Below, in pieces: positions 24,559 through 55,905 of a DNA stretch of 64,000 bases (its first letter is position 1; every line of letters starts with the position of its first letter). A program made the translations under genes and the position numbers. This stretch comes from Candidatus Bathyarchaeota archaeon (GTDB taxonomy: Archaea; Thermoproteota; Bathyarchaeia; Bathyarchaeales; Bathycorpusculaceae), in the NCBI GenBank assembly GCA_963782525.1, contig CAWAKC010000007.1, positions 224,001-288,000 on the forward strand, read 5' to 3'. The notes beneath the pieces were generated by a model. It had not been told where the DNA came from. It saw nothing but the letters and a program-made list of their open reading frames with translations, and did no database searches.

Positions 24559-24729
24559 ACTAATTTACATTTTCCCTACCCCAAAACATTGGCAACATAA
24601 TTTTTTGGCGCAACAACAGCGCTCTCAGGCAACCTAGTCTACTTTGGCTTAACACATTCGCATTCACGATAGCAAGTACTAGTGCTGGCAAAGGGTATTT
24701 TTTATCTGCCTACTTTAGAGATAAATGGG

Positions 24730-25758: not shown

Positions 25759-26043
25759 TTTTGTCTTAAGCCTTTCTCATGCTAACGGTTTTTCTTCTAA
25801 AGATGCCAAGAATAGGCGACATATCAAAAAGCATGGTATCAACACATTACCGAGACAAAGCCTCCGCTTAGAAGTATCTGGCTCAAATCAGCTTAACTTT
25901 CTTTTTTGCTACTCAATTAAAAACCTTTATTCACTCAGAAAAAACTCAGATTACGTTTTACTTTCCTAATTATTAATTATCGTTTTGTTAGGTGAATAGT
26001 AACCTTTATCTGCAAATAGGTATGAAAGTTATACTGTGAGAAT

Positions 26044-26334
26044 GTGGATCAAGAAAACTCCGACATCGCCGTGGTGGGAACCAAAGGCCAGATAGTTATT
26101 CCTCAACGCTTCAGAAAAGACCTGGCAATAACTCCAAACACCAAAATTATTGTATACCGAAAAGACGACAAACTTGTCCTAGCAAAACTCAAAGTTCCAC
26201 CACTAGAAGAACTAAAAGAACTTTTTGCAGAAATCGACCAACAAAACAAACAAAATAAAAAGCCAACCGAACAAGAGATTCTAAGCGACATTCAAGCTTA
26301 CCGACGAAAAAAGCGAGAAAGCAAAGGCGCATAA
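26044..26334 (+). CDS. AbrB/MazE/SpoVT-family antitoxin
   Basis: VGTKGQIVIPQRFRKDLAI. Confidence 0.88.
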   Translation: MDQENSDIAVVGTKGQIVIPQRFRKDLAITPNTKIIVYRKDDKLVLAKLKVPPLEELKELFAEIDQQNKQNKKPTEQEILSDIQAYRRKKRESKGA

Positions 26335-26335
26335 A

Positions 26336-26745
26336 ATGGTTCGCGTGGTCCTTGACGCTAATCTTTAGTGTCATCTCTTATCGATGAAGGAAAACCGCGA
26401 AGAGTTGTTTTTGAACTTTTAGACAAACATACTGTCGTATTATCTCAGCAAATGCTAGCTGAACTAGCCGATGTAATTTCAAGAGATAAATTTAAGGTTA
26501 CAATATCTCAGGTTGATAGGTTTGTTTCAAGCTTAGTTCGTTTGTCTAAAATGGTGCCAGATAGTGCCCGTTTTAAAGTTGTGTTGCAAGATCCTGATGA
26601 TGACGTAGTTCTAAACACGGTTTATACCGGGAGGGCCGAGTTTATCGTTACAGGGGACAAGCATCTTTTGGAGTTGGGTTCTTTCAAGAAAACTAAGATC
26701 ATAACTGTAAATCAGAGGCAAGACATCTTAATTGATAAAAAATAG
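26336..26745 (+). pseudogene. PIN-domain (VapC-like) toxin, frameshifted after codon 10
   Basis: ATG 26336 reads MVRVVLDANL* and the body continues in another frame (DPDDD..L, IVTGDKHLL). Confidence 0.8.
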
Positions 26746-26922
26746 TTTAAAGTAAGTTTGCTGTTTGTTCGATGCAGTTTTTGATTTCTTTCGGTGTTGC
26801 TGGAGGCGTAGAGTGCGAGTTGGAGTTTCACTTTTTTGTTAGCGCTTTGTGGGTTCATTCATGCAACAACACATCTTAATTATTCTGTTTCAAGATAGAT
26901 GGGAAATAACGGGGATTGACAT

Positions 26923-27159
26923 ATGATTTCAGCAGTTGTTTTAGTTACTACCGATACAGGTGCCCAAGATAAAGTGTTAGAAAACATAAAACTTGTTGAG
27001 GGCGTTGAAGAAGCTCACGCATTATACGGTGTCTACGACCTTCTAATCAAAATTAAGGGCAATTCTGTAGATAAGCTTAAGGAAATTACTAAATTACAAA
27101 TAAAACCGATAGCGGGCGTAAACAGTTATCTGACATTGATGTTAGTTCAAGACAATTAA
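26923..27159 (+). CDS. Stand-alone Lrp/AsnC ligand-binding-domain protein
   Basis: VEGVEEAHALYGVYDLLIKI...IAGVNSYLTL. Confidence 0.85.
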   Translation: MISAVVLVTTDTGAQDKVLENIKLVEGVEEAHALYGVYDLLIKIKGNSVDKLKEITKLQIKPIAGVNSYLTLMLVQDN

Positions 27160-27250
27160 CTATTTGTTGTTGTTTCATTTTGTGACAACATCATTTTATA
27201 TTATTTCAAGCGCTAATACGCTAACCAGACATAGTCCAACAGTAGCAGAT

Positions 27251-27340
27251 AGTTGGGCGGGTCTGGCTGCTAAATAAGGAGAAGGCAATCCCCCTTTCTT
27301 GCTGCATCCTGCTTTAGCGCATGGCTTGGTCCGCTTAACT
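27251..27340 (+). ncRNA. Candidate structured RNA (long imperfect hairpin)
   Basis: AGTTGGGCGGGTC pairs with GGTCCGCTTAACT and TGCTAAA with TTTAGCG, using G-U pairs; TATA-like TTTTATA near 27194; T-run after. Confidence 0.35.
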
Positions 27341-27516
27341 TAACATTTTGGGATAAGAATTGCTTGAAGGCTAATCGCCATTCAATATTAACGGTACTCA
27401 TTTTTTGGATGGTTGACTTTCGAGGAGCAAATAAAATTTCTATATGTTCTTTGTTGAACGGTTAAGTTAGTTGGTCAAAAATTATTTATGCAGAGTGGAT
27501 GTAAGATAGTTAGCCG

Positions 27517-27723
27517 ATGACTGTGAGTAAATCGAAAGCTTCGGATTATTTTGTTGCAGGAATCACTCTCATAGTTTTAGCGGGAGTTATCTGGCTAGTT
27601 GAAAACCTTGCTTTGAATAAAACAGTCGACAACAGTATTTTGCTTTTTATCCCCAGTGTTTTCATTATGCTAAGTGTCACTCATTTTATCGTAGCAAGCA
27701 AGAAATGGTATTCTTCGCATTAA
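27517..27723 (+). CDS. Small 2-TM membrane protein
   Basis: Two hydrophobic helices; own TATA-like element. Confidence 0.6.
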   Translation: MTVSKSKASDYFVAGITLIVLAGVIWLVENLALNKTVDNSILLFIPSVFIMLSVTHFIVASKKWYSSH

Positions 27724-27747
27724 CTTTTTAGCCAAGAGATCAAGCCC

Positions 27748-27963
27748 CTAAGAAGTGGGCTTTTTTGTTTCAGATTTTCCGCTCAGAACAATAACCCAAA
27801 GACCTAACCCAATTAACAGAAAACCAATAATAAAGCCAATAAACGATGAAAAACTTCGATAGTCGTTAGTAGGAAAAGTAATGACGCAGCCAAAATCCAT
27901 CGATACAATTGCGCCACCAATGGCAAAAAGTATTGCACCCAATAATCCAAATACAGATTTCAT
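27748..27963 (-). CDS. Small 2-TM membrane protein
   Basis: Two hydrophobic helices with basic tail. Confidence 0.6.
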   Translation of the reverse strand: MKSVFGLLGAILFAIGGAIVSMDFGCVITFPTNDYRSFSSFIGFIIGFLLIGLGLWVIVLSGKSETKKPTS

Positions 27964-28032
27964 GCTTTCACAATTTTTGTATTGTTTTGATCTTGCTTAA
28001 AAGTTTATAAAATCAGCCCAATTACTTTTTTC

Positions 28033-29589
28033 TTGATTCCCCTAAAATACACCATTATTGATAACCCAATAGCAACAATTACAAAACTTTATACTGCTAC
28101 GACGTCTGAATATAGGTCGGTGCTAATACACACGAATAAGTTGTGGGCGCTCGCAGTTGTAATCTGCACAGTTATGTTTTCAAGCTTGCTTTTTGTTCCC
28201 TTTGCGTGCGCGGATGTGCCTGCTGAACTTTGGGATTTTGCTTCCAACACAACCACTAACAATGTTTCTTGGGAAAGTGGCGTGGTAGTTGATGGAATAG
28301 CCTATGTATGGAACACTGAAACATACACAATACCAGGCGAACAAGCCCGCTACGAATCGATGTTTCCCCTAACACATTCGCTAGGAAACATTTACGCCCT
28401 AAACTCTCAAAACGGCGCCAAACTCTGGAACTACACTGTGACGGGTGATATTCGTTCTTTCCGCGTTCTCGACGGCGTGGCCTATGTTTCTGCAAGTGAA
28501 GGACTTAATATTGATGGAAAATATGGCGGAGGCGGCGTTTATGCATTTGACGCATCTACAGGCACTCAAAAATGGGTATATAAAATTGACGGCGACATTA
28601 TTAGGTGCTCAATTAGCAATAGCACGATCTATGTCTTCTTTCATGCTTCAGGCGATTACAGTTCTTTGCTTTGCGCAGTCAATGCAACTAATGGCAAGGA
28701 ACTTTGGAGGTGGAACGCTGGCTACTACGTTTTTCCTTCAATGTTTACCTTTAGTGATGAAGCACTCTTCTTTAGTATTAACCACCAAAACGATTATCGC
28801 TATTATGCTGTCAGCACGAGAGATGGCAACTTGCTTTGGAGCACACCAATAAACGGATCTGTAAACTGGTATTCCACAATTGGTGACGGCGTCGTCTATT
28901 TTAGCTCAACCCAAACAACCTACGCCTTAAACACCCAAGACGGCAATCAACTCTGGAGTTACCGGGCTGCAAGTTACGGCATAAGCGATAGCGGCATCCT
29001 CTACAACACAGTCGGCGACAACGTTTATGCCTATGATGGATTAAAAGGAAATCAAGTTTGGAATTACTCCACCGACGGTAGAACGATCCTATCTCTTGCA
29101 CGCATTGATAACGCGGTTTATTTTAGTACAAACGGCACCTTAACCGCCTTGAACATTGCAGACGGCACACCATTATGGAATAGCAGCACAGATGTAAATG
29201 GAACATTAAGCATCAGCGATGGCAGCTTTCGTTACTATAGCTTTGGCGCTTATGCTAGTGTTAATGGCGGAGTCTTTTATTATTATTCGGGAAAAACGCT
29301 TCATATCTTAGATGCGATAAATGGTAACAGCCTTTGGAATCACACAATTAGCAGTGACCAGTCGTTTGTTACAGTTGCCGACGCCATTGCTTTCTATAGT
29401 GGAAATAATTCAATTCATGCTTTGAGTTTTCCCACAGTTTCGCATCCTTCATCTAGTCCAACAGCAGCTCCTAATGGGACATCAATGAACTTGGTGTCAT
29501 TTAACCCGGCATTGATAATTGGGTCAATTGTCGTTGTGATTGTAGCATTATTAGTCATAGTTTTTGTTAGAAACAGAACTCGGAAATAA
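28033..29589 (+). CDS. Secreted PQQ-like beta-propeller protein with TM anchor
   Basis: Repeated YALNxxxGxxLW motifs; C-terminal TM plus RNRTRK; true start probably downstream (~28120). Confidence 0.82.
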   Translation: MIPLKYTIIDNPIATITKLYTATTSEYRSVLIHTNKLWALAVVICTVMFSSLLFVPFACADVPAELWDFASNTTTNNVSWESGVVVDGIAYVWNTETYTIPGEQARYESMFPLTHSLGNIYALNSQNGAKLWNYTVTGDIRSFRVLDGVAYVSASEGLNIDGKYGGGGVYAFDASTGTQKWVYKIDGDIIRCSISNSTIYVFFHASGDYSSLLCAVNATNGKELWRWNAGYYVFPSMFTFSDEALFFSINHQNDYRYYAVSTRDGNLLWSTPINGSVNWYSTIGDGVVYFSSTQTTYALNTQDGNQLWSYRAASYGISDSGILYNTVGDNVYAYDGLKGNQVWNYSTDGRTILSLARIDNAVYFSTNGTLTALNIADGTPLWNSSTDVNGTLSISDGSFRYYSFGAYASVNGGVFYYYSGKTLHILDAINGNSLWNHTISSDQSFVTVADAIAFYSGNNSIHALSFPTVSHPSSSPTAAPNGTSMNLVSFNPALIIGSIVVVIVALLVIVFVRNRTRK

Positions 29590-29700
29590 AATTTTCAAAA
29601 ACTTGGTTAGATAGGACCAGCAATTGGAAGCATTTCTGGATCCATTTTAATGCTCTGCGAAGTTGCTTGGAATAAGGCAATTTTTCATGAGCACCAAAAG

Positions 29701-30960
29701 TCAACTGTCTGAGTTAGGATAGTGTTTGATTCTCAATGTTACTAATGCTAGAGTAATTGATATCATCAAAGCGGTTATCGCCCAGGGGAATAGTTCTGGA
29801 ATAGGAGGAGTCGCTGTTGGAGTTGAGCTTGGTTGGACTTGAGTTAAACTGATTTTTGCCATCCAAGCGATTGGAATTGGTTTACTTGTATCTGATCCAG
29901 CTATAACATAGCTGCCATCAGGTAACTGCACAAGAGCATAAGCCTCATGGTTTTCTCCAAAGACCACTTCCGACTGTTCATTCCCTGAGGAGGCACTTGC
30001 AATAACAAGTTTGGTTCCGACAAGTGCAAAGTCTCCAATATTGTTTTTAGTCATGAATCTTGCTTGGCCAGCTCCATAGTATTTTGTCCATTGTGAATTT
30101 CCTAAAGCATCGGTTTTGACTGTGGCAAGGTTTGGTCCGCCGCCATTGCTGCGTAGCCACATCCAACCGCCCAAAGCGTAGCCACCATCACTTGTTTGAA
30201 TCACTGAAAAGGCGAAATCTTCATCTTGACTTCCGTAAGTTTTGCTCCACTTCAAATCACCGGTAGAGTTTGCTTTTATAAGCATGTAGTCGGGCAAATT
30301 ACCGATACCTCCAGCCAAAGCATAACCTCCGTCGCTTGTCTGGATAATCGAATTTACCTCTCCATCTCCAAGAGTCTTATTCCACTGTTCATTACCCAAA
30401 GCATCAGTTTTAACTAGCCAAATAGTTCCTTTGTTTCCGACGAGGTTGGTTTGACCTATCATTGCATAGCCACCATCGTTAGTTTGAGTTAAGGCTACCG
30501 CTGAGCTGAATCCTGACCCGCTGTAGGTTTGATTCCAGAGTATGTTGCCTTTGCCATCGATTTTTTCGAGCCAATAGTTCCCTGCATATTGACCAAATAT
30601 GGCATATGCGCCATCGTTGGTTGCAATTAGCCAGTTGCTGTAAAGATTCCCTTTGGCAGCATAAGTTTTATTCCATTGTAGGTTGCCGGTTGCGTCTACT
30701 TTGACAACTTCAATATTTGGTATGCTATTTGGCGAAAGGGCGGTTGAACCCGCTAAGAGAAATCCGTCATCAGCAGTTTGAACTATTGAGTCAACTTCAA
30801 TTAAGCCGCTTCCAGTAAATGTGCGATTCCACGTTATTGTCGGGACCATGGAAACGTCGGATGCTGACACATTTATCTGGAAAGCAAAGGAAGGCGTTGC
30901 ACAATAAGTCAGGGTCAATCCAAAAATCAGCATTATCAAAAGGGCACTTGGCGATTTCAT
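29701..30960 (-). CDS. Secreted beta-propeller-like repeat protein with PEL anchor
   Basis: Repeated QTxDGGYALxG / KTDxxGNxQWxKTYG units; IPELFPW plus TM. Confidence 0.82.
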   Translation of the reverse strand: MKSPSALLIMLIFGLTLTYCATPSFAFQINVSASDVSMVPTITWNRTFTGSGLIEVDSIVQTADDGFLLAGSTALSPNSIPNIEVVKVDATGNLQWNKTYAAKGNLYSNWLIATNDGAYAIFGQYAGNYWLEKIDGKGNILWNQTYSGSGFSSAVALTQTNDGGYAMIGQTNLVGNKGTIWLVKTDALGNEQWNKTLGDGEVNSIIQTSDGGYALAGGIGNLPDYMLIKANSTGDLKWSKTYGSQDEDFAFSVIQTSDGGYALGGWMWLRSNGGGPNLATVKTDALGNSQWTKYYGAGQARFMTKNNIGDFALVGTKLVIASASSGNEQSEVVFGENHEAYALVQLPDGSYVIAGSDTSKPIPIAWMAKISLTQVQPSSTPTATPPIPELFPWAITALMISITLALVTLRIKHYPNSDS

Positions 30961-31044
30961 CCTAACCCTCCAATTACACCATAGTGCGCCTTCTTCTTAT
31001 CGTTTGCTGGATAAAGATAAAACACTTTTTCAAAACTTAATTCC

Positions 31045-31139
31045 TTATTTTAGTCCTTCTCTTTGCTTTAAATAAACCATCATAACAGTAAACAATAGTG
31101 CAAAAACCATAATTATCCACAGACTGGAAATTCTGGAAC
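31045..31139 (-). pseudogene. Orphan PEF-CTERM tail without an ectodomain
   Basis: VPEFP, then frameshifted SLWIIMVFALLFTVMMVYLKQREGLK*. Confidence 0.65.
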
Positions 31140-31226
31140 TTGAGTGCGAGACAATAAAAAATGATAACTTTCAAGTATGTACTTGAACAGTTGAAATTAC
31201 CCTCGAAGAGCCCACCTATAACATAC

Positions 31227-31721
31227 TCAATATTTTAACCAACGCTCTTTCAATACTTCATCAATTAATGCTTTGGTTTCTTCCATTCGCTTCAAATGCC
31301 TTTGTCCTATAAGAAGCCAATTAACCTGAAGGTCACCAGCCTTAATTGAATTCTGGTTCTGCACAAAAGCCTCTTTCGCATCTCTTACTCTTACAGCTTC
31401 ATAATCAGTGCCTTTTATTTTGCCATATACTTTAGTTAGCTTTTTTAATTGATCGGAATCTAAAAGTTGTAGTTGTCCGCTGGCAACGGCTAAATCCCAC
31501 ACGTCAGGATAAAGTTTGTAGGCATCACCAGTTAAGCTTTCTTTCAAGCTATTAAGCTCACAAGAAATATTCTTTAGCAATTCTTTTTTTGTATGTTGCG
31601 CTTTTCTCCAATCAATAACTCGGTCAAGCATGAAAGCCAGAAAAACTCCAGAAAATGTAACTACTAATTCGAGTAATAGAGCTACTTGATTGATACTTTC
31701 AGACATCTTGTTAACTTTCAC
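31227..31721 (-). CDS. Hypothetical protein with N-terminal TM helix
   Basis: 164-aa ORF, one TM segment then helical domain. Confidence 0.7.
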   Translation of the reverse strand: MKVNKMSESINQVALLLELVVTFSGVFLAFMLDRVIDWRKAQHTKKELLKNISCELNSLKESLTGDAYKLYPDVWDLAVASGQLQLLDSDQLKKLTKVYGKIKGTDYEAVRVRDAKEAFVQNQNSIKAGDLQVNWLLIGQRHLKRMEETKALIDEVLKERWLKY

Positions 31722-32159
31722 TTTAGCTAAATATTTCTACGCTATTTAGTTTTAAGTGTTTGCTGTGAAAGAAGATGGTTGAATAGGGGGTGGAATTGAG
31801 GTTAACGTTGGACTCCATAGTACGGTTAAGTAGAAAATGGATAAATTCTGACATTACTAATCAAAAATGGTGGTGTTAGCTTCTGTTAGCTTATTTTACT
31901 AACATTTAACGTCAATAGATGGTTAATCTTTCGTATTCAAATACTTGCCACCATCATTTGTTGGAACATTCAATATATCATATATTATTTTGAATGCCGA
32001 TAAAGCTGTCGACCAATTTAATGGTGAATTATTGATATTTGATGCTAAATAGGCTAAATCCAGAAAAAGTCGTAGATACTTCAAGATTCTTATTAACCTT
32101 AGTTTCCCATGTTTCCATGTTCTTGTAGTCTTCAAAGACTAAGAAACTAACAGTTTTCA

Positions 32160-32579
32160 TTATTTGCTGTTTTGCGCTGGATATTGGCATTCTTTTAATT
32201 CTATCAAAGAAGGTATAGGAATGCCTTGATTTATTTTTTGAAATAATTCATCAACTATTTTTAGGCAGTTATCTCTCTGTGCATTTAGCTGTATTAGTCT
32301 AGGCTTTATAAAATAAACAAGGGTATAAACCAATATCATAAAAATAACTATATTTAGAAGACTTGCTAAATCGGAACTAGCTTTCAAATTAATTAATTGT
32401 GAATATACTGTTCCCTGAAAAAATAAAGTTGCAAGAAAAATAAGATATCCAATAATAAAACCGTAATGAATCGAATAAGATATGTTCACTCTTGTTTGAA
32501 AATAGCTCATTAAAGCTTGAACTCTTTGCAACTCCACCTCTCTATCGACAACCATAGCTTTTTGTTTTTCATTAGCCAT
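32160..32579 (-). CDS. Hypothetical 2-TM membrane protein
   Basis: 139-aa AT-rich ORF with two hydrophobic segments. Confidence 0.65.
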   Translation of the reverse strand: MANEKQKAMVVDREVELQRVQALMSYFQTRVNISYSIHYGFIIGYLIFLATLFFQGTVYSQLINLKASSDLASLLNIVIFMILVYTLVYFIKPRLIQLNAQRDNCLKIVDELFQKINQGIPIPSLIELKECQYPAQNSK

Positions 32580-32664
32580 GCTTACGCTATTTCTACGTTA
32601 TGAAGTTTTAAGTTTTTGCATCGTAGTATAAGTCTTAAAAGACAATGCTCTATTAGTTAACACT

Positions 32665-33369
32665 ATGGCTATTCAACCGTTTGGAGTAAAAGTTAAAGAA
32701 AAACACAACAGAAAGCTTTCGTTTGAACAAATTATTAGTATAGTTCTAAGCATTGCGCTTCTTTTCTCTACTGTCTATTATGCTAGCCAAAATGATAATT
32801 TGCAAAAATCAAATGCTGATTTGCAAAACTTACTCTATAACTATACACCTTTCATATTTTCAAATTATTCAAGCTCAAATCTTCAGAATATATTCTTCTC
32901 AATTAATGATTCAGTCATTTTGTTTGATGGGTGGGTTAACGTTGATTTGAAAGTTGTTTCCCCTTATGATGGGATGTTGAATTTAGACGTTAAAAATTTG
33001 AATTTTACAGATATGAATGGCTCATACGATATAATACCGTATTATTTCAACGTGAGTCTTCTTCAGTATTCAAAGGCTTCAATCGCTGGAGCAAATAATC
33101 ACCAATATTTTATCTCTAAAAATGTTATGAATCCAATAGTTGATAAAATCGAGGTTCAAATGTACGTCTATCTAAATACTGGAGTCCTTCAGGATGTTTT
33201 CAAGGATGTTGGAGTAAATAGCACACTTGGCGTGGGTTTCCCTTTAGGTGATATGACCTTTCAAGCTACCCTTTTTGAAACTCAAATAAACAGAAACTAT
33301 ACTCAGAATTTTATTGAGGGAATACATTGTGAAATTAATAAAAACCCTCAACGGATTATTATTGGGTAG
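32665..33369 (+). CDS. Hypothetical membrane-anchored exported protein
   Basis: N-terminal TM, short coiled coil, Asn-rich with several NxS/T sequons. Confidence 0.7.
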   Translation: MAIQPFGVKVKEKHNRKLSFEQIISIVLSIALLFSTVYYASQNDNLQKSNADLQNLLYNYTPFIFSNYSSSNLQNIFFSINDSVILFDGWVNVDLKVVSPYDGMLNLDVKNLNFTDMNGSYDIIPYYFNVSLLQYSKASIAGANNHQYFISKNVMNPIVDKIEVQMYVYLNTGVLQDVFKDVGVNSTLGVGFPLGDMTFQATLFETQINRNYTQNFIEGIHCEINKNPQRIIIG

Positions 33370-33555
33370 ATTTATAACTTGAAATAGACATTTTGCTCTT
33401 GCTTTTTTTCATCTTCCTATTTGCTGTCTTATTACTGCTGACAACAAATTGTATGAAACAGCAAAAGACCACTTCAGCGTTCTAAATATAAAAGAATATA
33501 AATAAAGTTCTAAAATTATAGCGTTGAAACTTCCTTAACTAAACTTGATTTATAA

Positions 33556-34509
33556 TTAGTCAAGTTTCTCGACTAATTCAGTTTTGGGTTTGTACTTCTT
33601 GAAGTAAACCAGTAAGCCTACACCTACAATGAGTGCTAATGTTCCAGAAGCTATAATTACCAACAATGTTGGCAATGGTGAGGTTCCTATTGTGTTTGGA
33701 CTGAAGACAATAACAGCACCATGAATAAATGGAAAATTTTCATTTTCTTGAGAAATTACCAATTCATTTGAATTAGTGTAGTTTAATGGCGTTAGTGTCC
33801 CATTAGTATGTATAGAATAGGCTTGTATCTTATTTGAAAACGGTTCAACTTGTATATTGAATTTTTCAGGTAAATATTCGAACCAAGAATAGAGAGGATA
33901 TGAAATATTGCTACACCCATAACGCCCATAAATTGGAATTATTAATGCGTAATCTCCCAAATAGCCATAAGATGAACTGGTTTTTGGAATAGGTTGTTCA
34001 TAGTGAACTGTCACAAGAAAATCGCTTGGAACTGGAGAAACTGTCCAATTGACTTCCGCTAGATTGGCATCAAAAATATGGAAAAATCCCTTGTTATCTA
34101 TTTGCCATTTAATTTCTTGGTTATTTATCTTTACTGATAGGTTAGTTATATTTGTTGGAATTGGATAGTGAGCTTCTAATGTATTTTGTGTGACTGTAAC
34201 AGTTACATAAGGTGAGGGGTCTGTTACCAAGCCCATCCCGCTGTTTCGAGCAACATAACTATCTCCGAAACCGTAGATGGTATGCATATGATATTCTGCA
34301 TCAACATTCGCCCAAAATACTCCACTGGAACTTGAAATTGAAGCATGAATATTCGTTCCAGAAACTCCGACCTTCGGGGGAATCTCCGTATACATGGGGT
34401 TTGCTCTAACCGTATTAAAACTTTGAAGTTCGATTGAAATTAAAAGAACCATTGCTAAGAATATGGCTGTCGATATTCTCTTGATGGCAAGGTTTCTTTT
34501 TCTACGCAA
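33556..34509 (-). CDS. Secreted protein, ANP / VYFKK-anchored family
   Basis: Signal peptide ending VRA-NP; SPLPT plus TM plus LLVYFKKYK. Confidence 0.8.
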   Translation of the reverse strand: MRRKRNLAIKRISTAIFLAMVLLISIELQSFNTVRANPMYTEIPPKVGVSGTNIHASISSSSGVFWANVDAEYHMHTIYGFGDSYVARNSGMGLVTDPSPYVTVTVTQNTLEAHYPIPTNITNLSVKINNQEIKWQIDNKGFFHIFDANLAEVNWTVSPVPSDFLVTVHYEQPIPKTSSSYGYLGDYALIIPIYGRYGCSNISYPLYSWFEYLPEKFNIQVEPFSNKIQAYSIHTNGTLTPLNYTNSNELVISQENENFPFIHGAVIVFSPNTIGTSPLPTLLVIIASGTLALIVGVGLLVYFKKYKPKTELVEKLD

Positions 34510-34671
34510 AATTGCACCCGTTGGTTCATTTTTTTAGTATTAGTTTTTAATGTTTTAAGGTGTTAGTGCGGGTATTATTTGGATTTCAATTTGTATACTT
34601 GCCTTATTAACCGACTGGAAATAAAGGCTTATCGTAAACTTCATTGTCTAAAGTCTTTCAAAGTTTCTTAA

Positions 34672-35838
34672 CTATCCAGTATTACGTTTATGCTTCTTGA
34701 AGTAAATCAGCAAACCGGCGACCACAAACACCGCAGCTGCTATCGAAACAGTGCCAACAGTTAAAGTTGGAAAGGTCTCAGATCCCGCATTGGGATGCGT
34801 TGGACTTGGCGAACCAGTCGATGTAGGATTTGGCCCAATCAAGGCGGAAAATGGAAATATTACAGGATAATGATCGATGGCGGTTCCTAGAACTGCGGTC
34901 CCTGTTTTGGTGGTACCGTTTGCATAATTATCAGAGTAGTTTGTGCTGTCGATGATCGCATAAGGTATGTCGCCTATTCCCAAATGGCCCAATTCCGTAG
35001 CATTAGGGTACTTTGACAGGTAATCACTCCAGTAGTTTCCGACAGAACCGTTGTCCCATTGTCCTGCGGGAGATAGTGGAACTATATTTGATACGAATGG
35101 CACGCCGATTGGAACATGGAGTATCTGCGAATTGTTTATGAAATTGTTAGAATAAAGTAGTTGGAATCCGGCGCTGTTTACATTCGCACTTTGAGTGCCC
35201 AGAGTCAGTACCACAGTGTTGTTTGTAACGTTGTTCTCTATGATTGTTGTTCCGTTGCTGTTTAGGATGTCGAGCGCCCAGTTGTTGTTTGTTATGTGGT
35301 TTTGCATTATAAGGTTGTTGTCTCCTTGCAAACGAGTAGCTCCTGTGTCGATAAGAATCGCGGCGTCACTGCTGCCCGACATACTGTTTCCACTCACGAG
35401 GTAATCATCGGCGTATATTGCGATGGCTTGATAATTGCCCCTGAACACGTTTCTTGTTATGGTGTTGTTGTTGAAAGCGCCGTAGACTCCAGCTTTCCAA
35501 CTAGTCACTTGCAGGTTTTCGACGGTTACGTTGCTAGCCATTAGAGTTATTGCTATAGCGTTCTGACTTATGCCAGGACCTTGAAGAGTATGGTTGGCTC
35601 CGTCCAACACGATATTCCCTTTTTCTACGGTTATGGAGCTGTTAAGATCCGCAGTTATTCTGTAGGTGTTTCCTTTCATTTGCATGGCAACGCCAGAAGG
35701 TGTGACGCTTCCGTCTGCTTTGATGGTTATTCCTGTAAGAGATTCAGCTTTAACAGACTGAAGGGTAATTACACAGGATGCCATCAGGAAGATAAGAACA
35801 AACAGTAGGGTGAAGCCTTTACTCATATTCATCCACAT
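34672..35838 (-). CDS. Secreted NosD/CASH-type parallel beta-helix protein
   Basis: ITIKADGSV, NIVLDGANHTL, Asn ladders, GNYWSDY, IDHYP; ETFPT plus TM plus LLIYFKKHK. Confidence 0.85.
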   Translation of the reverse strand: MWMNMSKGFTLLFVLIFLMASCVITLQSVKAESLTGITIKADGSVTPSGVAMQMKGNTYRITADLNSSITVEKGNIVLDGANHTLQGPGISQNAIAITLMASNVTVENLQVTSWKAGVYGAFNNNTITRNVFRGNYQAIAIYADDYLVSGNSMSGSSDAAILIDTGATRLQGDNNLIMQNHITNNNWALDILNSNGTTIIENNVTNNTVVLTLGTQSANVNSAGFQLLYSNNFINNSQILHVPIGVPFVSNIVPLSPAGQWDNGSVGNYWSDYLSKYPNATELGHLGIGDIPYAIIDSTNYSDNYANGTTKTGTAVLGTAIDHYPVIFPFSALIGPNPTSTGSPSPTHPNAGSETFPTLTVGTVSIAAAVFVVAGLLIYFKKHKRNTG

Positions 35839-35886
35839 TAATTATGATATAATTAGTGATAAAAGAGTTCTTTTCAAGGTTCTTGA

Positions 35887-36714
35887 TTAATTCAGTATTA
35901 GCTTATGTTTCTTAAAGTAAACCAGTAAACCCAAACTAATGATAATGGCAATTACTACAAGTGCAATAACTGTAAATGGAAATGATGTCTCAGGCGCTTT
36001 AGCAGTAAAATTTATTGTCTCTGATTTTGTCATATCTCCAAAAGTATTATTGCCAAAAACAACTATGCTGTGATTTCCAGAACTTAGTCCTGTTAAAGTT
36101 TTATTTCCACCTATAGTCACATTGGCTAAATTATCTAAGCTGTAGCCTAACCATGAAGTTGGCTGGTCAACTGTGAAATTCAAAGGAAAAGTTGAAAATG
36201 TTATGTTAGCACTCTGGTCTGTCAGAAGCTTAATTGAGGGAGCTTCATGCGTGATAAAGTAGACTTGAGATGAACTGTCCATAAAGAAAACAAAACTAAA
36301 CATATCATAAACACTTCCTTCTGCCTTAACTGTTAGGCTGTGGTTGCCTGCTGCTAAGTTAGGTGCAACAAAGGAAGTATAATACTGAGAAGTGCCATGC
36401 TCACCTTTCACAAGAATAAAACCTGCGTGTGGAATACTAACACTCTCGTCATCTATTTTGTAAGTCACATCAACGATATCAGAATCATAGCTACTGTATT
36501 GTGGTCCTTTAACGCTAAAGGTAATATTGAATGCCCCTGAGTAGTTAGCGTTGTTTTGTGGGCTGCCTATAGAAATAATTGGTGGAACCGCGCCTTTTGG
36601 AGGGTCAATCTGAGGTGTAAAACCGTAGGGGTTAGCATCCACGCCCTCAATCGCTTGTATCCCAATCAGCAATGAAAGAGCAAACACTATAGAAAAACTT
36701 ATTGTTCTCTTCAT
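35887..36714 (-). CDS. Secreted Ig-like-domain protein, ANP / VYFKK family
   Basis: VDA-NPY; SPQN, LNFTVD, YSLD, TLTGLSSGNHSI; FPF plus TM plus LLVYFKKHK. Confidence 0.82.
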   Translation of the reverse strand: MKRTISFSIVFALSLLIGIQAIEGVDANPYGFTPQIDPPKGAVPPIISIGSPQNNANYSGAFNITFSVKGPQYSSYDSDIVDVTYKIDDESVSIPHAGFILVKGEHGTSQYYTSFVAPNLAAGNHSLTVKAEGSVYDMFSFVFFMDSSSQVYFITHEAPSIKLLTDQSANITFSTFPLNFTVDQPTSWLGYSLDNLANVTIGGNKTLTGLSSGNHSIVVFGNNTFGDMTKSETINFTAKAPETSFPFTVIALVVIAIIISLGLLVYFKKHKLILN

Positions 36715-37616
36715 TTTTTCCCCTTCATTCTCTTAAAATAAACGATTAAGCCAACAGTAGCTAGCGCAACCGCAAACATTGAAGCTAGAACCCAGAGCAT
36801 TGAAAACTGCAAAGGACTCGAAGAATCAGTTTCTACTTTGAAAAAAAGGATGCCTGAAGTGCCTACATACCCAAATGTGTCTGTTGCACAGACCGTAATG
36901 TTATGTTGCCCGTTGGATAAGCCAGTTAGAGTTGTGTTTCCTTTAATTGGTACAGGGTCTTGTCTATCTAGGCAGTAAGTCAGTTTTGGAACCGAGCGGT
37001 CGACTGTAAAACTCAAAGGAAAAGTAGAATTCGTTAAAGAACCATTCTGAAATGATACAAAACTGATTTTGGGGCTTGTATGCACCAAGAGTCCTGCTGC
37101 TGATGAGTTGACATAGAATTTTACCGATATTGGCTTTTCCAAATTAAACGTATATTCGGTTCCATTTTTGTTATAATCGCCGTGTCCATTTGCAACAATG
37201 TTTAAAGTACGATCTCCAGCTGGGATTCCACTAATGTTGAAGTTATATTGCAAGAAACGATTCTCTCCAACGGGATCCACACCAGGCGGAAAAGGACTCC
37301 ACTTTGCGTTTGACATCCAATCGCCCTGATATGTGGTGACTATGTTTAGATTTGTCGTAAGCCCCTCAGGTTGGTTTATTGTTTCATTGAAACAAAAATT
37401 AATGGGTCCATCGGAAAATGAAGCATTCTCCATCGGAGAAGTAACTCTGATGGTTATATTGACGTTATCGGGTGCAGGTACATCAACTGGAAACTTGAAT
37501 CCATAAGGATTAGCCTTGACAGACACAAAGGGGGCATCCACTTGCTCAACAACTTGAATTCCAACAACTAAAAGAAGAGCAAAGACTCCTGCAAATATGG
37601 CGTATCTTCTCTTCAT
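36711..37616 (-). CDS. Secreted Ig-like-domain protein, ANP / VYFKK family
   Basis: VKA-NPY; SPMEN, LSFTVD, GNTTLTGLSNGQHNI; TM plus IVYFKR. Confidence 0.82.
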   Translation of the reverse strand: MKRRYAIFAGVFALLLVVGIQVVEQVDAPFVSVKANPYGFKFPVDVPAPDNVNITIRVTSPMENASFSDGPINFCFNETINQPEGLTTNLNIVTTYQGDWMSNAKWSPFPPGVDPVGENRFLQYNFNISGIPAGDRTLNIVANGHGDYNKNGTEYTFNLEKPISVKFYVNSSAAGLLVHTSPKISFVSFQNGSLTNSTFPLSFTVDRSVPKLTYCLDRQDPVPIKGNTTLTGLSNGQHNITVCATDTFGYVGTSGILFFKVETDSSSPLQFSMLWVLASMFAVALATVGLIVYFKRMKGKK

Positions 37617-38203
37617 GGCTGCCCCTTTCTTCTCCTAAAGTAAACCAATGAGATTGAAGCAACAGCCACTATTACAATCACAATAGCCAGGATATAGACT
37701 ATAGAGGGATTTAACGCAACTTGCATTTTGGGACCTGTGTTAATTGTTGGAATGTTTTGGCTTGTAGTTGGAGTAGCTGAATTAGGGATAATGCCTACTG
37801 TAAACAGCCAATTGGCTGATAACACCTTTCCTTCTGAGTCAGTTGCATAAGCATTGATTGTGTGGTTTCCTATCATTAGGTTGTGTAAGTTTTCCGTGAT
37901 AGAATATATCTGATGATTATTAGGCAAATCGGACTTAAACCAAGTTGTGTATTCTAAATTGGTAGATGTAATATTTGCCTCTCCGTCTAGGCTATAGCTA
38001 ATTGAAACAATTGCTTGAGCATCCATTGAAATATGTACCTCTACGGTGAAAGTGTAGTTGTTCCCATTTGGATAAGTTGGGTTATAACCCCTAACGTATA
38101 CTGAGGGAATTGGGTAAAAGTTAGCTTCTAACATAGGTATTGATGATAACACTGCAATTGCTGACAGTAGGATGATTGTTGTTGCCAAGAGTTTCTTTGG
38201 CAT
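37613..38203 (-). CDS. Secreted single Ig-like-domain protein with TM anchor
   Basis: LEA-NFY; YSLDG, GNHTINAYATD; LVYFRRRK. Confidence 0.8.
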   Translation of the reverse strand: MPKKLLATTIILLSAIAVLSSIPMLEANFYPIPSVYVRGYNPTYPNGNNYTFTVEVHISMDAQAIVSISYSLDGEANITSTNLEYTTWFKSDLPNNHQIYSITENLHNLMIGNHTINAYATDSEGKVLSANWLFTVGIIPNSATPTTSQNIPTINTGPKMQVALNPSIVYILAIVIVIVAVASISLVYFRRRKGQP

Positions 38204-38329
38204 ATACCGTTCCTGTCATATTATGAAGTTGAGTTTGCTTAAGTGGTTTTTTGTCAAACTTTCTTGCCTAAAGTTAGTCAAGATAGTTTTACAAGAAGTC
38301 TTTTATCCGCAACCAACCCTAACCTTAAT

Positions 38330-39023
38330 CATGGGCAGTACAAGCAAGAGCTTCTCGGTACTTCTTGTCGTTATCTTAGCAGTATCAAGCCTAATAATGG
38401 TTGAATCTGCCTCTGCCCAATCAATACCTACACCATCTGTTCCAGAATTTACTGTAACGCTTATCGCTTCTCCTCCTGACAGCCATTTTGTAAATAAAAC
38501 AATAGAGTTGGCAATCAAAAATCAACCCTCCTTTCCTAAAAATGGGTTTTTCTATAATGTTCGCATAAGAATTAACGATGGTAATTGGGGTCTTCTCTAC
38601 CCTAACAATAATAGTGTGCCAAACCAGTCCGATGGTGAATATACAATCTTATCATACAGTTCAGGATATCTTGGGGTTGAATACCAATATCTTTTAGGAT
38701 ATAAGGTAGAGAACCTGACTGCAGATGATAAAATAGATTTTCAAGTACAAGCCATGGTTGGGTCTATATACCGAGTTTTTAACCCTAATGCAACAAACCA
38801 ATTAGAAATGTATCCATATATTTTTACTGGAGAAACAAGTGATTGGAGCAACACACAAACAATAACCATACCTGAAACTTCCACCTCACCCGCACCAAAT
38901 CCAACACCAACTCCTACCCTTTCAGAGTTTCCAGCTTTGGCAATTTTGCCTTTGTTTATTTCTTTGCTCTCTGTGGGTTTGCTTTATAGAAAGCATCGAA
39001 AGACCGCTCGATTCAGTGAGTAG
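38330..39023 (+). CDS. Secreted protein with VPEF near the N-terminus and SEFP anchor (start reassigned to ATG 38330)
   Basis: MGSTSKSFS signal, SIPTPSVPEFT, DFQVQA, GETSDWSNTQTITIP, LSEFP plus TM plus KHRKT. Confidence 0.8.
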
Positions 39024-39139
39024 CTTTTTCATTCTTATGTGGTATGTGACAGGTTGAGACGGTAGAGATGATGATTGAGATAGACTAAATCTGAGAGATT
39101 ATTCTCCTTATTTTAGATAGAGTACCAGACTACATTCAT

Positions 39140-39688
39140 TTAATCAAGTTTTGAATCTATTGTGAAATAAACCTTGGTTTGAGCTAAATGGTCGAGGTCA
39201 TTAGCTTTCAAGTCTCCAAAAACTGTTATCCTGTGAGCGCCTTCGGACAGTTTTTGCAGAGTAATTGTTCCTGTGATTATTCCCACATATTGGTCATTTA
39301 GAGACCTTGGTTGTTCAATTACGGGAAACGGAAGGCTTTCTTGACCATCGAGGCTATAATTCATAAACAATTCAATGTTACTTGCACGTATTACTTGACC
39401 AGTGATATTCAGAGACAATATGTTTGAGCTGTAGGTTGTGTTAACTGGGGAAGTTATAGCAAAGAAGCTCAAAGGCTCGTCAAATGATGCGTTAGTTGTT
39501 GAAGATGAAGTCGGAGAGGGACTTGGGGAAGTCAATTGTGAAGTGGCATTCGGAGAGGGAGATGGATGGGGAGTTGGAGAACTATCGGTATGCTCGGAAA
39601 TTGGTAAAAAATATACTCCCAAGGCGATTATAGCCACTATCGAAACTAACAGAACTAATAAGGCAAAAGCTATAATTCTTTTATTCAT
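39140..39688 (-). CDS. N-anchored Ig-like-domain protein
   Basis: N-terminal TM, SP/TP linker, ITSPVNTTY, YSLDG, LSEGAHRITV. Confidence 0.8.
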   Translation of the reverse strand: MNKRIIAFALLVLLVSIVAIIALGVYFLPISEHTDSSPTPHPSPSPNATSQLTSPSPSPTSSSTTNASFDEPLSFFAITSPVNTTYSSNILSLNITGQVIRASNIELFMNYSLDGQESLPFPVIEQPRSLNDQYVGIITGTITLQKLSEGAHRITVFGDLKANDLDHLAQTKVYFTIDSKLD

Positions 39689-39772
39689 TTTGCATTAACA
39701 CTTTACTCAGAAGAAAATGGTTTGTTAGAAGTTAAAACGTTTTCTAATAAATTTGGCTTCTAACGCATATAT

Positions 39773-39893
39773 CTTAGCCAACAGGAACCGCTTTGTATAA
39801 ACAAAATGTATAAACAAATCATATAAACAAAACGCCCGCCGTTCGCAAACCCCTATCAATTAAACGGTCTGATAAACAGAAGCTTGTCGGGGT
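39773..39893. repeat. Copy B of the ~120-bp iteron-bearing direct repeat
   Basis: CTTAGCCAAC...TGTATAAACAAAATGTATAAACAAATCATATAAACAAAACGCCC; retains the TTG GCT AAG start codons but not the gene. Confidence 0.85.
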
Positions 39894-39943
39894 TTAATAA
39901 ACACGACGCAGATTCCGGCATTTTAGGTTAAGTCGGCTACCGA

Positions 39944-40459
39944 TTAGCAGGTATCTGAGGGTTTCATTTGCTTCAGCATGGTTTTCCGTGGAAGAAAACC
40001 GTATTTTGCATAGAAACAGAAAGCTTCCTAGTTGCCAGAGGCTACCTCAACGATTTTTGCCACTGCTCCTTCCTGATCCATCCAGCAGAGCGCTTTTTTC
40101 ATAAGTGAATCCCCTATTCCCGAGCCCCGGTAGTTAGCGCCAACAAAAATGGATTCAGCCTCACCTATCATTTCTTGATTGAGGCTGCTAACGCAATACC
40201 CAACATTTTGGCCTGTCACTTCATCGACAGCTAAGTCAACTCTCATTTTTCCAGAAGCGGCTTTTTTTATTAAATCTGCCTTTCGCTTCTCAAAAGTCAT
40301 ATCTTTATAGTGCTGCTTAAAATTGGTCGATAAACCTAAATGGTGACTGTTTAGGGCGTCCCACAAAACCCTGATTTGATCAAGCAAAGCGTCGTCACCA
40401 TGAATGAACTCGACACTTCGTTTATTCATCAAATAACCTACCCACTCAAGAGCAATCAT
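39944..40459 (-). pseudogene. GNAT acetyltransferase with an in-frame TAG
   Basis: ESIFV..NYRGSGIG motif A; after TAG (40028-30) the frame continues EAFCFYAKYGFLPRK to TAA at 39944. Confidence 0.8.
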
Positions 40460-40535
40460 TCCCTCAGCAAGTTTAAAGCTTTATTTCCCCGAAAACCCCA
40501 CCTAAACTAGCAAAAAACTCGGTTGAACTTTTAAA

Positions 40536-55820: not shown

Positions 55821-55905
55821 TGCGGAGGGTGGGATTTGAACCCACGAACCCCTGCGGGATAGGAGCCTCAGTCCTACGCCTTTGGCCATGCTGGGCGACC
55901 TCCGC
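55821..55905 (-). tRNA. tRNA-Leu(GAG)
   Basis: GCGGAGG/CCTCCGC acceptor stem, TAGGA-CTGAGGC-TCCTA anticodon arm, long variable arm, GGTTCAAATCC T-loop; no encoded CCA. Confidence 0.96.

Follow-up and report, generated by a model that had tools for sequence, protein, structure and literature searches.

A palindromic DNA motif that recurs at gene boundaries in an archaeal surface-protein gene array is most probably (roughly 0.78) the dyad-symmetric operator of a transcription factor controlling a surface-protein regulon. The window, a 64,000-nt stretch of one contig (C7) of an uncultured archaeal genome (here G000), carries this array within an island that varies between strains. The putative operator lies immediately before the BRE/TATA elements of promoters driving genes or short operons for secreted, membrane-anchored surface proteins, and judged from its sequence context it would be bound by a dimeric transcription factor restricted to the lineage. 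The proximal site ends 8 to 9 nt before the TATA box, and a second, usually better site is often present 24 or 34 to 35 nt further upstream. The sequence-only reading had proposed an integron-like cassette recombination site, with an operator just upstream of TATA boxes as the alternative. It is the alternative that fits, since the motif lies at a fixed distance from TATA, an outcome which that reading had itself set against recombination.

The consensus is the palindrome TTAGTCAAG-N4-CTTGAC(TAA), 19 to 22 bp overall. Its dyad symmetry is compatible with a dimer, and many copies have perfect 9-bp arms around a 4-bp spacer (e.g., TTAGTCAAGAAACCTTGACTAA in relatives G036 and G038). The motif clearly exceeded background: six matches to the consensus first proposed (≤3 mismatches) were found in the window, four of them inside the array, versus a mean of 0.50 (maximum, 3) in 100 dinucleotide shuffles. 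When the genome was scanned with a 19-nt PWM derived from its own matches, and hence trained on the same genome, 21 matches reached ≥20 bits, versus 1, 1, 2, 3, and 0 in five order-3 Markov genomes; at ≥22 bits the counts were 13 versus 0.

All eight copies originally quoted were found, with coordinates exact or at most 1 nt off, but they were of unequal quality. Four are strong: 38253..38271 (−, TTAGGCAAGAAAGTTTGAC, 26.1 bits, the strongest), 38274..38292 (+, TTAGTCAAGATAGTTTTAC, 20.9 bits), 34657..34675 (−, 19.2 bits, overlapping the stop codon of gene 34672-35838), and 33524..33542 (−, TTAGTTAAGGAAGTTTCAA, 17.4 bits). Two are degenerate and lie in promoter context, namely, 35872..35890 (−, TTAATCAAGAACCTTGAAA, 7.2 bits, overlapping the stop codon of gene 35887-36714) and 33556..33576 (−, PWM score −2.5), a palindrome with a 3-nt spacer that is the source of an in-frame LVEKLD* ending. 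Both score low because their spacer is one base shorter; they are part of the same promoter/gene-end module as the strong copies. The remaining two were rejected, as their support is limited to a 9-nt half-site: TTAGCCAAGAGA at 27728..27739 (+, 1.2 bits) shows half-site resemblance only, and TTAATCAAG at 39140..39148 (+) scores below 0. The former adjoins a hairpin-plus-T-run between convergent genes. The latter corresponds to the region around the stop codon of gene 39140-39688 (...DSKLD*), and the G010 orthologue ends in the same way.

The five array genes (33556..38203, −) encode secreted proteins that combine a signal peptide with a hydrophobic anchor at the C terminus; the anchor ends in ...L(L/I)VYFK(K/R)xK, a motif present in 33 ORFs genome-wide. 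A NosD-like beta-helix gene (34672-35838; Pfam NosD, 1.6e-09) and a Big_7 Ig-like gene (35887-36714; Pfam Big_7, 6.5e-06) are accompanied by three further genes for secreted, anchored proteins at 33556-34509, 36711-37616, and 37613-38203. On the opposite strand, gene 38331-39023 (+) encodes a secreted, anchored protein (MGSTSKSF...) whose homologues in relatives are also found behind motif pairs.

The back-to-back copies at the divergent junction (38253-38292) proved to be real and are conserved in the syntenic G010 locus. On the minus strand, 38253..38271 is the proximal site of the three-gene operon 38203->35887; downstream of it follow a TATA-like CTTAAGC at 38243-38237, whose CTTAA starts 9 nt beyond the core, and then the ATG at 38203. 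The same layout, with the ATG 46 to 49 nt after the site, recurs in at least 7 paralogous MPKKLL... genes of G000 and was also seen in G002, G010, and other congeners. On the plus strand, 38274..38292 serves gene 38331-39023: the BRE/TATA (AAGAAGT CTTTTATCC) occupies 38293-38308, TATA starts 8 nt beyond the core, and ∼27 nt separate the ATG from the TATA centre. This short distance suggests that the mRNA may be leaderless, and a metatranscriptome contig (X20, record 18) starting at 38330 gives a weak hint on the transcript start.

Farther into the array, 34657..34675 is the distal site of a pair whose degenerate partner (34633-34651; PWM score −2.9) precedes a TATA-like CTTTATTTCC at 34626-34617, upstream of gene 34509->33556; the 24-nt spacing agrees with that of tandem pairs elsewhere. 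Copy 35872..35890, which belongs to a repeated gene-end module, is followed by AAGAACTCTTTTATCAC (TATA at 35865-35856) and then by the ATG (35838) of the NosD-like gene. Gene 33556-34509 has the pair 33524..33576 (−) at its end; a TATA-like box (33520-33510) follows, with no ORF of ≥60 aa downstream, and by its sequence this is a putative orphan promoter. The block containing it (33429-33622) is 94% identical in G010, although the neighbours differ.

Geometry was analysed at 87 unique exact-core sites, 12 in G000 and 75 in relatives' loci (174 flanks), many of which are paralogous or orthologous promoters and hence non-independent. Of the 174 flanks, 43 had a TATA-like pentamer starting 8 to 9 nt from the core, and 25 had one at 32 to 33 nt; a smaller peak (17) was present at offsets 18 to 19, and most remaining offsets had between 0 and 5. 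The peaks reported at 8 to 9, 32 to 33, and 43 to 44 nt correspond to a fixed position relative to BRE/TATA. A phased TATA was present at 57 of the 87 sites and was then followed in 52 cases by an ORF of ≥60 aa within 160 nt. Among these 52 downstream ORFs, 47 passed a signal-peptide heuristic, versus 433 of 2452 ORFs of G000. With the pentamer list used, 30 sites were without a phased TATA, including most of those in genus g25, where promoter architecture may be different. At loci picked by the motif alone (G042, G066, and G109), 19 of 31 sites preceded signal-peptide ORFs (hand count). Tandem pairs were frequent, with the second site 24 or 34 to 35 nt from the proximal one, spacings that amount to non-integer helical turns.

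Of 120 genomes of the genus, 108 contained the 14-mer core (856 matches, versus 7 for a reversed control). When 151 genomes were drawn from across the class, enrichment was seen only in this genus and in the related genera g18 (6 matches) and g25 (12 to 26 in all three genomes). G000 has 12 exact-core copies, and none of the 120 genus genomes tabulated exceeds 27.

The site borders BRE on its upstream side, and TATA is poor (CTTAAGC) at several target promoters; on these grounds we consider it somewhat more probable (∼60:40) that the factor is an activator helping to recruit TBP/TFB than a repressor occluding BRE. A 93-aa winged-helix-like neighbour was tried as the cognate factor and failed both the distribution and the adjacency tests, and no recurring transcription factor family was found among 65 scanned motif neighbours. 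A full-text literature search with the half-site and core strings returned only unrelated primers and aptamers.

Operator placement would also account for the resemblance to cassette junctions. Overlap of the motif with stop codons, as noticed earlier, was confirmed. One frame of the consensus palindrome contains TAG and TAA, and a second contains TGA, so that two of three frames are closed; because the sequence is palindromic, both strands are equally affected. Upstream ORFs therefore end in the motif (KLD*). In a compact array the next promoter would begin at the end of the previous gene, so that upstream ORFs would run into the palindrome and terminate there, giving rise to an apparent junction motif and to KLD* endings.

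The conservation had also been attributed to the DNA level, and such a use does exist: elsewhere in the genome, outside the window, an element with a DDE transposase inserts into the motif. This 1676-bp member of the IS1182 family and its 131-bp MITE both enter the palindrome at its 4-bp centre, in G000 as well as in relatives. The transposase has the domains DUF772, DDE_Tnp_1, and DDE_Tnp_1_6 (E = 7.7e-16, 1.3e-11, and 2.4e-12), the six 1676-bp copies are 99.9 to 100% identical across the 1554-nt transposase gene, and the inverted repeats are GAGACYGTGTRAAAA. In G000, 12 of 13 elements (6 IS, 7 MITE) show a perfect 4-bp duplication, and 17 of 26 element ends have a TTAGTCAAG-like half-site at a distance of exactly 4 nt (background rate, 0.0017); in relatives, all 16 readable IS copies have a half-site flank. 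Of the 12 copies in relatives for which both ends are visible, 4 have 4-bp flanks that do not match each other, as does 1 of the 6 IS copies of G000, although both flanks resemble motif halves; this is the expected trace of recombination between copies. Copies also lie within surface-gene clusters (G035:C1 and G038:C45). A transposase does, then, recognize this sequence, and the motif may have a DNA-level role.

These observations could mean that the motif is primarily a transposition target or hot spot of this family, with recombination between inserted copies reshuffling promoter-to-promoter segments and operator function perhaps coexisting. We regard this as distinctly unlikely. No IS or MITE end was found on the window's contig, most island breakpoints lie away from motif centres, and the motif occurs without the IS, being present in 108 of 120 genomes, versus 43 of 120 with an IS match. 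Moreover, targeting of short inverted repeats is a family trait (IS1272; PMC5678879), and the motif may be no more than the most frequent of the suitable palindromes. A dual role, as operator and as entry point for IS1182-type elements and MITEs whose insertion and interelement recombination would switch surface operons off or on and reassort promoter-to-promoter segments, is an unlikely but tentatively conceivable extension. If true, it would constitute a transposon-driven system of cell-surface diversification in an uncultured archaeon.

It is very improbable that the similarity is nothing more than promoter sequence passed down within a gene family that expanded recently, with no dedicated factor. 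Many targets are indeed paralogues, and conserved 5' regions reach beyond the motif (e.g., AAAAAACCACTTAAGCAAACTC). However, the palindrome is kept while flanks and downstream families differ (MPKKLL..., MGxxxKS..., NosD-like, PQQ-like, and others), it persists in other genera as well, and dyad symmetry and tandem phasing would not be expected from descent alone.

As anticipated, strain comparison showed the array to be variable, with cassette-like gains and losses. The region 24600..40500 is a strain-variable island flanked by conserved core genes: nearly all of it is missing in G002, G012, and G008, G035 is without 31038-39662, and G010 has different genes between retained promoter patches. 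Contigs 90 to 99% identical to parts of the island were present in peat and permafrost metagenome runs. Variation in cassette-sized units, mixed gene orientation, and the orphan promoter and gene tail would suit a crossover site at which a dedicated recombinase, integron-like or other, excises, inserts, or inverts surface-protein cassettes. Of ∼10 mapped breakpoints, one (38282) does lie at the motif centre, within copy 38274-38292. The remainder, however, fall in anchor-tail, signal-peptide, or TATA-proximal sequence or in motif-free places. The largest indel (G035 junction 31037|39663) is motif-free, with its right edge inside gene 39140-39688, as are the outer island borders, and junction 36637|38233 lies 20 nt downstream of the motif. 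The sole clean single-cassette indel (1101 bp, 33584->34686) crosses over in homologous coding sequence, fusing two paralogous anchor tails in frame, with junctions 8 to 11 nt outside motif copies. Tyrosine recombinase (PF00589) had eight matches in G000 and none on the window's contig; those nearest the other motif clusters are tens of kb off. Together with the fixed TATA distance, a promoter of its own for each supposed cassette, and the presence of the motif at single, nonarrayed promoters in 108 of 120 genomes, these findings leave site-specific cassette recombination barely credible. Island turnover appears best explained by recombination among repeated modules rather than at the motif: ordinary recombination among modules of 120 to 150 bp (anchor-coding tail plus promoter) would produce the gains and losses.

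Equally implausible is an RNA-level or 3'-end element of the upstream gene (a hairpin terminator, stabiliser, or REP-like repeat), for although a palindrome with 9-bp arms often overlaps or follows stop codons and the pair 33524-33576 lies between convergent genes without a downstream ORF, the copies are phased to the downstream TATA and not to the upstream stop, number 12 to 26 per genome and not hundreds, and include many proximal ones of poor symmetry (CTTTAC), which would make for a weaker hairpin; an Rfam scan of the window gave no match other than a tRNA, and a promoter role is favoured because the divergent promoter 38253-38292 has no co-directional upstream gene.

The operator reading would thus define a conserved operator and a regulon of ∼15 surface-protein promoters in an uncultured archaeal genus, and the operator offers a concrete bait for finding its regulator. 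It also illustrates that a stop-codon-bearing promoter element can mimic a cassette junction in a compact genome. Homing of an IS and its MITE to the operator centre could underlie some of the plasticity and on/off variation in these surface-gene islands.

Dimeric archaeal regulators that bind just upstream of BRE/TATA include Ptr2 of Methanocaldococcus jannaschii and TrmBL1, whose sites lie upstream of BRE. Like operators of this type, the motif is a dyad-symmetric site of 16 to 22 bp that abuts BRE from upstream, is often in tandem, and marks a coherent promoter set; unlike them, the regulon here comprises surface proteins of an uncultured archaeal genus. To our knowledge, its sequence equals no archaeal operator.

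Integron arrays, too, consist of unrelated accessory genes whose boundaries carry a recurring imperfect palindrome. In contrast to integrons, the array has no IntI-type recombinase close by, its units are oriented both ways and carry their own promoters, and breakpoints lie mostly off the repeat. We also agree that the motif does not fit attC: that site (RYYYAAC ... GTTRRRY) lies at the 3' end of promoterless, co-oriented cassettes, whereas TTAGTCAAG-N4-CTTGAC lies 8 to 9 nt before TATA.

The IS resembles bacterial elements that target REP/BIME sequences in homing to a repeated genomic palindrome (PMC1525189). REPs are high-copy and extragenic, whereas the target here is a low-copy promoter operator with fixed TATA phasing. 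The motif was rejected as a REP/BIME itself, with too few copies (12 in G000 and ≤27 in any of 120 genus genomes) against the over 100 per genome given in PMC2817692. REPs also come with an associated Y1 (RAYT) transposase; the three Y1_Tnp matches, one of them at 408-767 of the window, do not adjoin motif copies.

A close parallel for the insertions is IS1272. In PMC5678879, IS1272/IS1182-family targets are short inverted repeats with 9- to 12-bp arms and 4- to 6-bp spacers, and IS1272 is reported to replace the target repeat without duplication and to accept varied sequences. The element described here shares the transposase family domains and an inverted-repeat target, with 9-bp arms and a 4-bp spacer. 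It differs from IS1272 in that both arms are kept and the 4-bp spacer is duplicated, nearly all copies lie in one sequence family, the promoter operator, a 131-bp MITE has the same target, and the host is an archaeon. Inverted-repeat targeting by the IS1182 family is thereby extended to archaea and to a defined sequence.

The 2.87-Mb archaeal assembly studied here (G000) comprises 12 contigs, and the window is positions 224001-288000 of contig C7. Neighbors in the ESM Atlas were archaeal and, where assigned, Thermoproteota, with scores no higher than 0.86, a mere lead to the lineage; PF12942 (archaeal AmoA) gave no match, nor did its control. All eight motif strings that the sequence-only reading had quoted from the surface-protein gene array were present in the window. 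Its consensus, with up to 3 mismatches allowed, matched the window six times, compared to 0.50 expected matches and a maximum of 3 among 100 shuffles; four of the six lay within the array. A 19-nt position weight matrix (PWM) was built from genome-wide matches, with G000 itself as the training genome and its relatives as the independent test. At a threshold of at least 20 bits, this matrix matched G000 21 times, versus 1, 1, 2, 3, and 0 times among five order-3 Markov genomes; raising the threshold to 22 bits left 13 matches versus none. Six of the eight proposed copies held up: 38253 (minus strand, 26.1 bits), 38274-38292 (plus strand, 20.9 bits), 34657 (minus strand, 19.2 bits), 33524 (minus strand, 17.4 bits) and, in promoter context, 35872 (minus strand, 7.2 bits) and 33556-33576 (-2.5 bits). 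The last two scored low solely because their spacer is one base short. The remaining two, at 27728 (1.2 bits) and 39140 (below 0 bits), turned out to be half-site look-alikes only.

The motif is best read as a predicted transcription-factor operator, in view of its TATA phasing, dyad symmetry, arrangement in tandem pairs, genus-wide conservation ahead of one functional gene class, and occurrence in many genomes free of the insertion sequence (IS) described below. An operator just upstream of TATA boxes had been the alternative in the sequence-only reading, and it fits the fixed phasing. We analyzed 87 unique sites with an exact core. G000 contributed 12 and relatives' loci 75; of these loci, L053-L112 were selected by the motif alone and L019-L047 by target-gene homology, so that the latter are biased. 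Of 174 flanks, 43 had a TATA-like pentamer starting at a distance of 8 to 9 nt from the core and 25 had one at 32 to 33 nt, with minor peaks at 18 to 19, 43 to 44, and 52 to 53 nt; most remaining offsets had 0 to 5. A phased TATA was present at 57 of the 87 sites, 52 of which were followed by an open reading frame (ORF) of at least 60 aa. A crude signal-peptide heuristic was passed by 47 of these 52 ORFs, versus 433 of 2,452 ORFs in G000. By the pentamer list, a phased TATA was absent at 30 of the 87 sites, including most sites of G216, a member of another genus (g25) in which promoter architecture may differ from that in the other genomes. In the window, copy 38253 carries CTTAAGC at offset 9, and copy 38274 carries CTTTTATCC at offset 8, with the TATA centre preceding the ATG at 38331 by ∼27 nt, a distance that a leaderless mRNA would be expected to show. 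A peat metatranscriptome contig from a related strain starts at 38330; since contigs cannot fix transcript starts, this is a weak hint that the transcript of the 38331 gene begins there.

The same motif/promoter layout was found in the congeners G002 and G010 and also ahead of surface-gene homologues in eight further relatives (G005, G008, G012, G036, G038, G042, G044, and G046), where the motif forms a clean palindrome, TTAGTCAAG-N4-CTTGAC(TAA), followed directly by GAAAAnnCTTTTTA (BRE/TATA). Of 120 genomes from the genus, 108 contained the 14-mer CAAGAAASYTTGAC, which gave 856 matches versus 7 for the reversed control. Sites in paralogous or orthologous promoters are not independent. The 14-mer superseded a narrower pattern, RYAAGAAASYTTGAC, which omits the GTCAAG copies and was found in 6 of 31 genomes. 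In a class-wide draw of 151 genomes, CAAGAAASYTTGAC was enriched only in this genus and in two others: g18, from the same family (6 matches), and g25, from a different family within that order (12, 15, and 26 matches; 3 of 3 genomes).

Genome-wide, the best motif copies in G000 were all intergenic and aimed at the first gene of surface-type genes or operons. By regular-expression heuristics, the array proteins begin with a signal peptide and carry a hydrophobic anchor at the C terminus, where they end in ...LVYFK(K/R)xK; an NCBIfam search found no C-terminal sorting-signal family among them. Pfam matches comprised a NosD-like beta-helix and a Big_7 Ig-like domain in the array, and a PQQ-type beta-propeller nearby (gene models came from our own ORF heuristics). 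In seven or more paralogues starting with MPKKLL, the site lies 46 to 49 nt from the ATG with AAAAAACCACTTAAGCAAACTC between, while a second promoter type has AAGAAGTCTTTTATCC after the site and a site-to-ATG distance of 38 nt. Tandem motif pairs are frequent, with a spacing of 24 nt. One such pair (contig C11, position 12106 in G000; locus L105 in G042) precedes a conserved small ORF of ∼63 aa (...NHY(I/V)INHR(I/L)LI(Q/R)MQKD...) near a proteasome beta-subunit gene, which is among the few motif targets without a secreted product. In the window, a motif pair with a TATA-like box at 33510-33576 forms an orphan promoter with convergent genes on either side and no ORF of at least 60 aa downstream. 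G010 retains this block at 94% identity, with the adjoining gene truncated to a 175-aa tail.

Overlap with stop codons follows from the motif's composition. On either strand, one frame of the consensus palindrome contains TAG and TAA and a second contains TGA, so that an ORF entering a site stops in two of three frames; in the array, the end of the preceding gene is the start of the next promoter. In frame, CTTGACTAA reads L-D-stop, and this explains the two KLD-stop endings; the second of them, at 39140, involves no motif copy.

The predicted operator would be bound by an activator. We favor this step, which we infer from the position of the site, abutting the BRE from upstream, and from the weak TATA of several target promoters. 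A 93-aa ORF in G000 (C10:181820-182098), winged-helix-like by eye only and without a Pfam family, was considered as the regulator and rejected on distribution and adjacency. It adjoins a motif pair, is 85 to 95% conserved in close relatives, and has a homologue (54% identity) that likewise lies next to a motif in G066. Of 120 genus genomes, 76 had a match to it; with this query, it was missing in the motif-rich G061, G065, and G077 and present in the motif-free G054 and G067, and a motif was within reach in only 1 of 30 loci. Among 65 non-secreted motif neighbors, picked by eye from 91 ORFs by dropping 26 spurious- or low-complexity-looking ones, a Pfam scan revealed no recurrent transcription-factor family, each family matching at most two of them. 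A literature search covering the main text of articles gave no relevant match to the motif strings.

A 517-aa ORF that adjoined motif copies three times proved to be the transposase of a 1,676-bp IS, which its domains (DUF772, DDE_Tnp_1, and DDE_Tnp_1_6) place in the IS1182 family. Six copies are present in G000 outside the window (C1:376857-378532, C10:83118-84793, C11:10415-12090, C11:110654-112329, C3:306452-308127, and C9:120402-122077). Four of them split the motif exactly in its 4-bp spacer, which is duplicated (GTCAAG-AAAC-IS-AAAC-CTTGAC); the motif taken is usually the distal site of a pair ahead of a surface gene. The fifth copy adjoins a half-site, and the sixth, on C9, lacks a duplication, perhaps reflecting recombination. 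Exact matching of the inverted-repeat (IR) core yielded 26 ends in G000, equivalent to 13 elements: the six IS copies and seven 131-bp miniature elements (MITEs; C1:53452-53582, C1:373567-373697, C1:373726-373856, C11:62591-62721, C12:44910-45040, C3:191286-191416, and C3:313057-313187). A fuzzy search, which gives many chance matches, was used for relatives' loci only. The MITEs share the terminal repeats of the IS and lie mostly in motif or motif-like sites, two of them adjacent in neighboring sites at C1:373.6-373.9 kb. A perfect 4-bp duplication flanks all seven, and 12 of the 13 elements overall. Seventeen of the 26 ends lay exactly 4 nt from a TTAGTCAAG-like 9-mer (at most 2 mismatches; background frequency, 0.0017), and 11 of 13 elements had at least one such flank. 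One MITE lies inside the proximal operator of the gene at C1:53639, which explains why the remaining site there is an odd 226 nt from the ATG. In the genus, 43 of 120 genomes had IS matches (E of at most 1e-20). From 18 relatives' copies aligned over at least 1,000 nt, we left out L129 (contig consisting of the IS only) and L134 (66% identity, unreliable ends); all 16 retained copies were flanked by a motif half-site. Both ends were visible in 12, with 4-bp flanks identical in 8 and different in 4; mismatched flanks in which each side is a motif half would be the expected trace of recombination between copies in different operators.

The motif may have a weaker DNA-level role, in which operators would act as landing pads for the IS and MITEs and recombination between elements would reshuffle islands; however, the exact IR core search found no IS or MITE end on the window's contig (C7). 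The segment from ∼24.6 to 40.5 kb is a variable island, bordered on both sides by conserved core genes. It is almost wholly absent from G002, G012, and G008 (about 70 to 78% flank identity). In G010 (91 to 93% flank identity), only patches 33429-33622, 35908-36637, and 38233-38449 are present, with other genes between. In G035 (about 90%), 31037 is joined straight to 39663, with no motif on either side of the junction and its right edge inside the gene 39140-39688. Metagenome contigs of related strains provided further joints, from sequencing runs in which related sequence made up at most 0.15 each; gaps in cover were not counted as absence. Joint 33584 to 34686 removes exactly one gene unit and connects two paralogous anchor tails without shifting the frame, 8 to 11 nt beyond the motif copies. 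A module of 120 to 150 bp, anchor-coding sequence plus motif, recurs at the three gene ends at 33.5, 34.6, and 35.8 kb. Joint 36637 to 38233 reproduces the G010 arrangement, breaking 20 nt downstream of a motif, joint 31138 to 38168 has 1,180 other letters between its sides, and a homology break at 38282 coincides with the exact centre of copy 38274-38292. The integron-like cassette-recombination site proposed in the sequence-only reading is not supported, since only one of about ten mapped breakpoints fell at a motif centre and none of the eight tyrosine-recombinase family matches in G000 lay on C7 or beside other motif clusters. The remaining breakpoints are consistent with unrelated deletions or with recombination among repeated modules.

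Other features of the window were noted in passing. The 518-aa PQQ-propeller gene (28033-29589) is replaced by other DNA in G035, and its G010 orthologue (L048, G010:C7, reverse complement of 5175-6458) is broken into ORFs of 208 and 158 aa and may be a pseudogene. Two small adjoining ORFs at 26044-26745 have N termini resembling, by eye, an AbrB/SpoVT-type antitoxin and a PIN-type toxin; a different PIN-like pair lies inside the island in G010. The genome has three copies of an IS200/IS605-type Y1 transposase (PF01797), including one at 408-767 (minus strand; E = 1.9e-32), for which the nearby 441-aa ORF at 3173-4498 could be the TnpB partner. The sole Rfam match in the window was an 85-nt tRNA (55821-55905, minus strand).

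A paralogous IS of about 1,623 bp (C3:201407-203030, C3:230983-232606, and C5 at about 86.7-88.2 kb), with a transposase 41 to 46% identical, has another short palindrome (AACCCC-GAAA-GGGT type) at its flanks, again with 4-bp repeats. A preference for inverted-repeat targets therefore seems to characterize the family, and the two flank types suggest that each IS subfamily has its own palindromic target. Our literature search, covering the main text of articles, returned nothing relevant on IS targeting operators or transcription-factor sites in archaea. A further analogue is provided by bacterial IS that target REP palindromes (PMC1525189). IS1272, also of the IS1182 family, is reported to insert at inverted repeats with 9- to 12-bp arms and 4- to 6-bp spacers (PMC5678879). 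The IS described here resembles it in having an inverted-repeat target; IS1272, however, reportedly replaces its target inverted repeat without duplication, whereas here the 4-bp spacer is duplicated.
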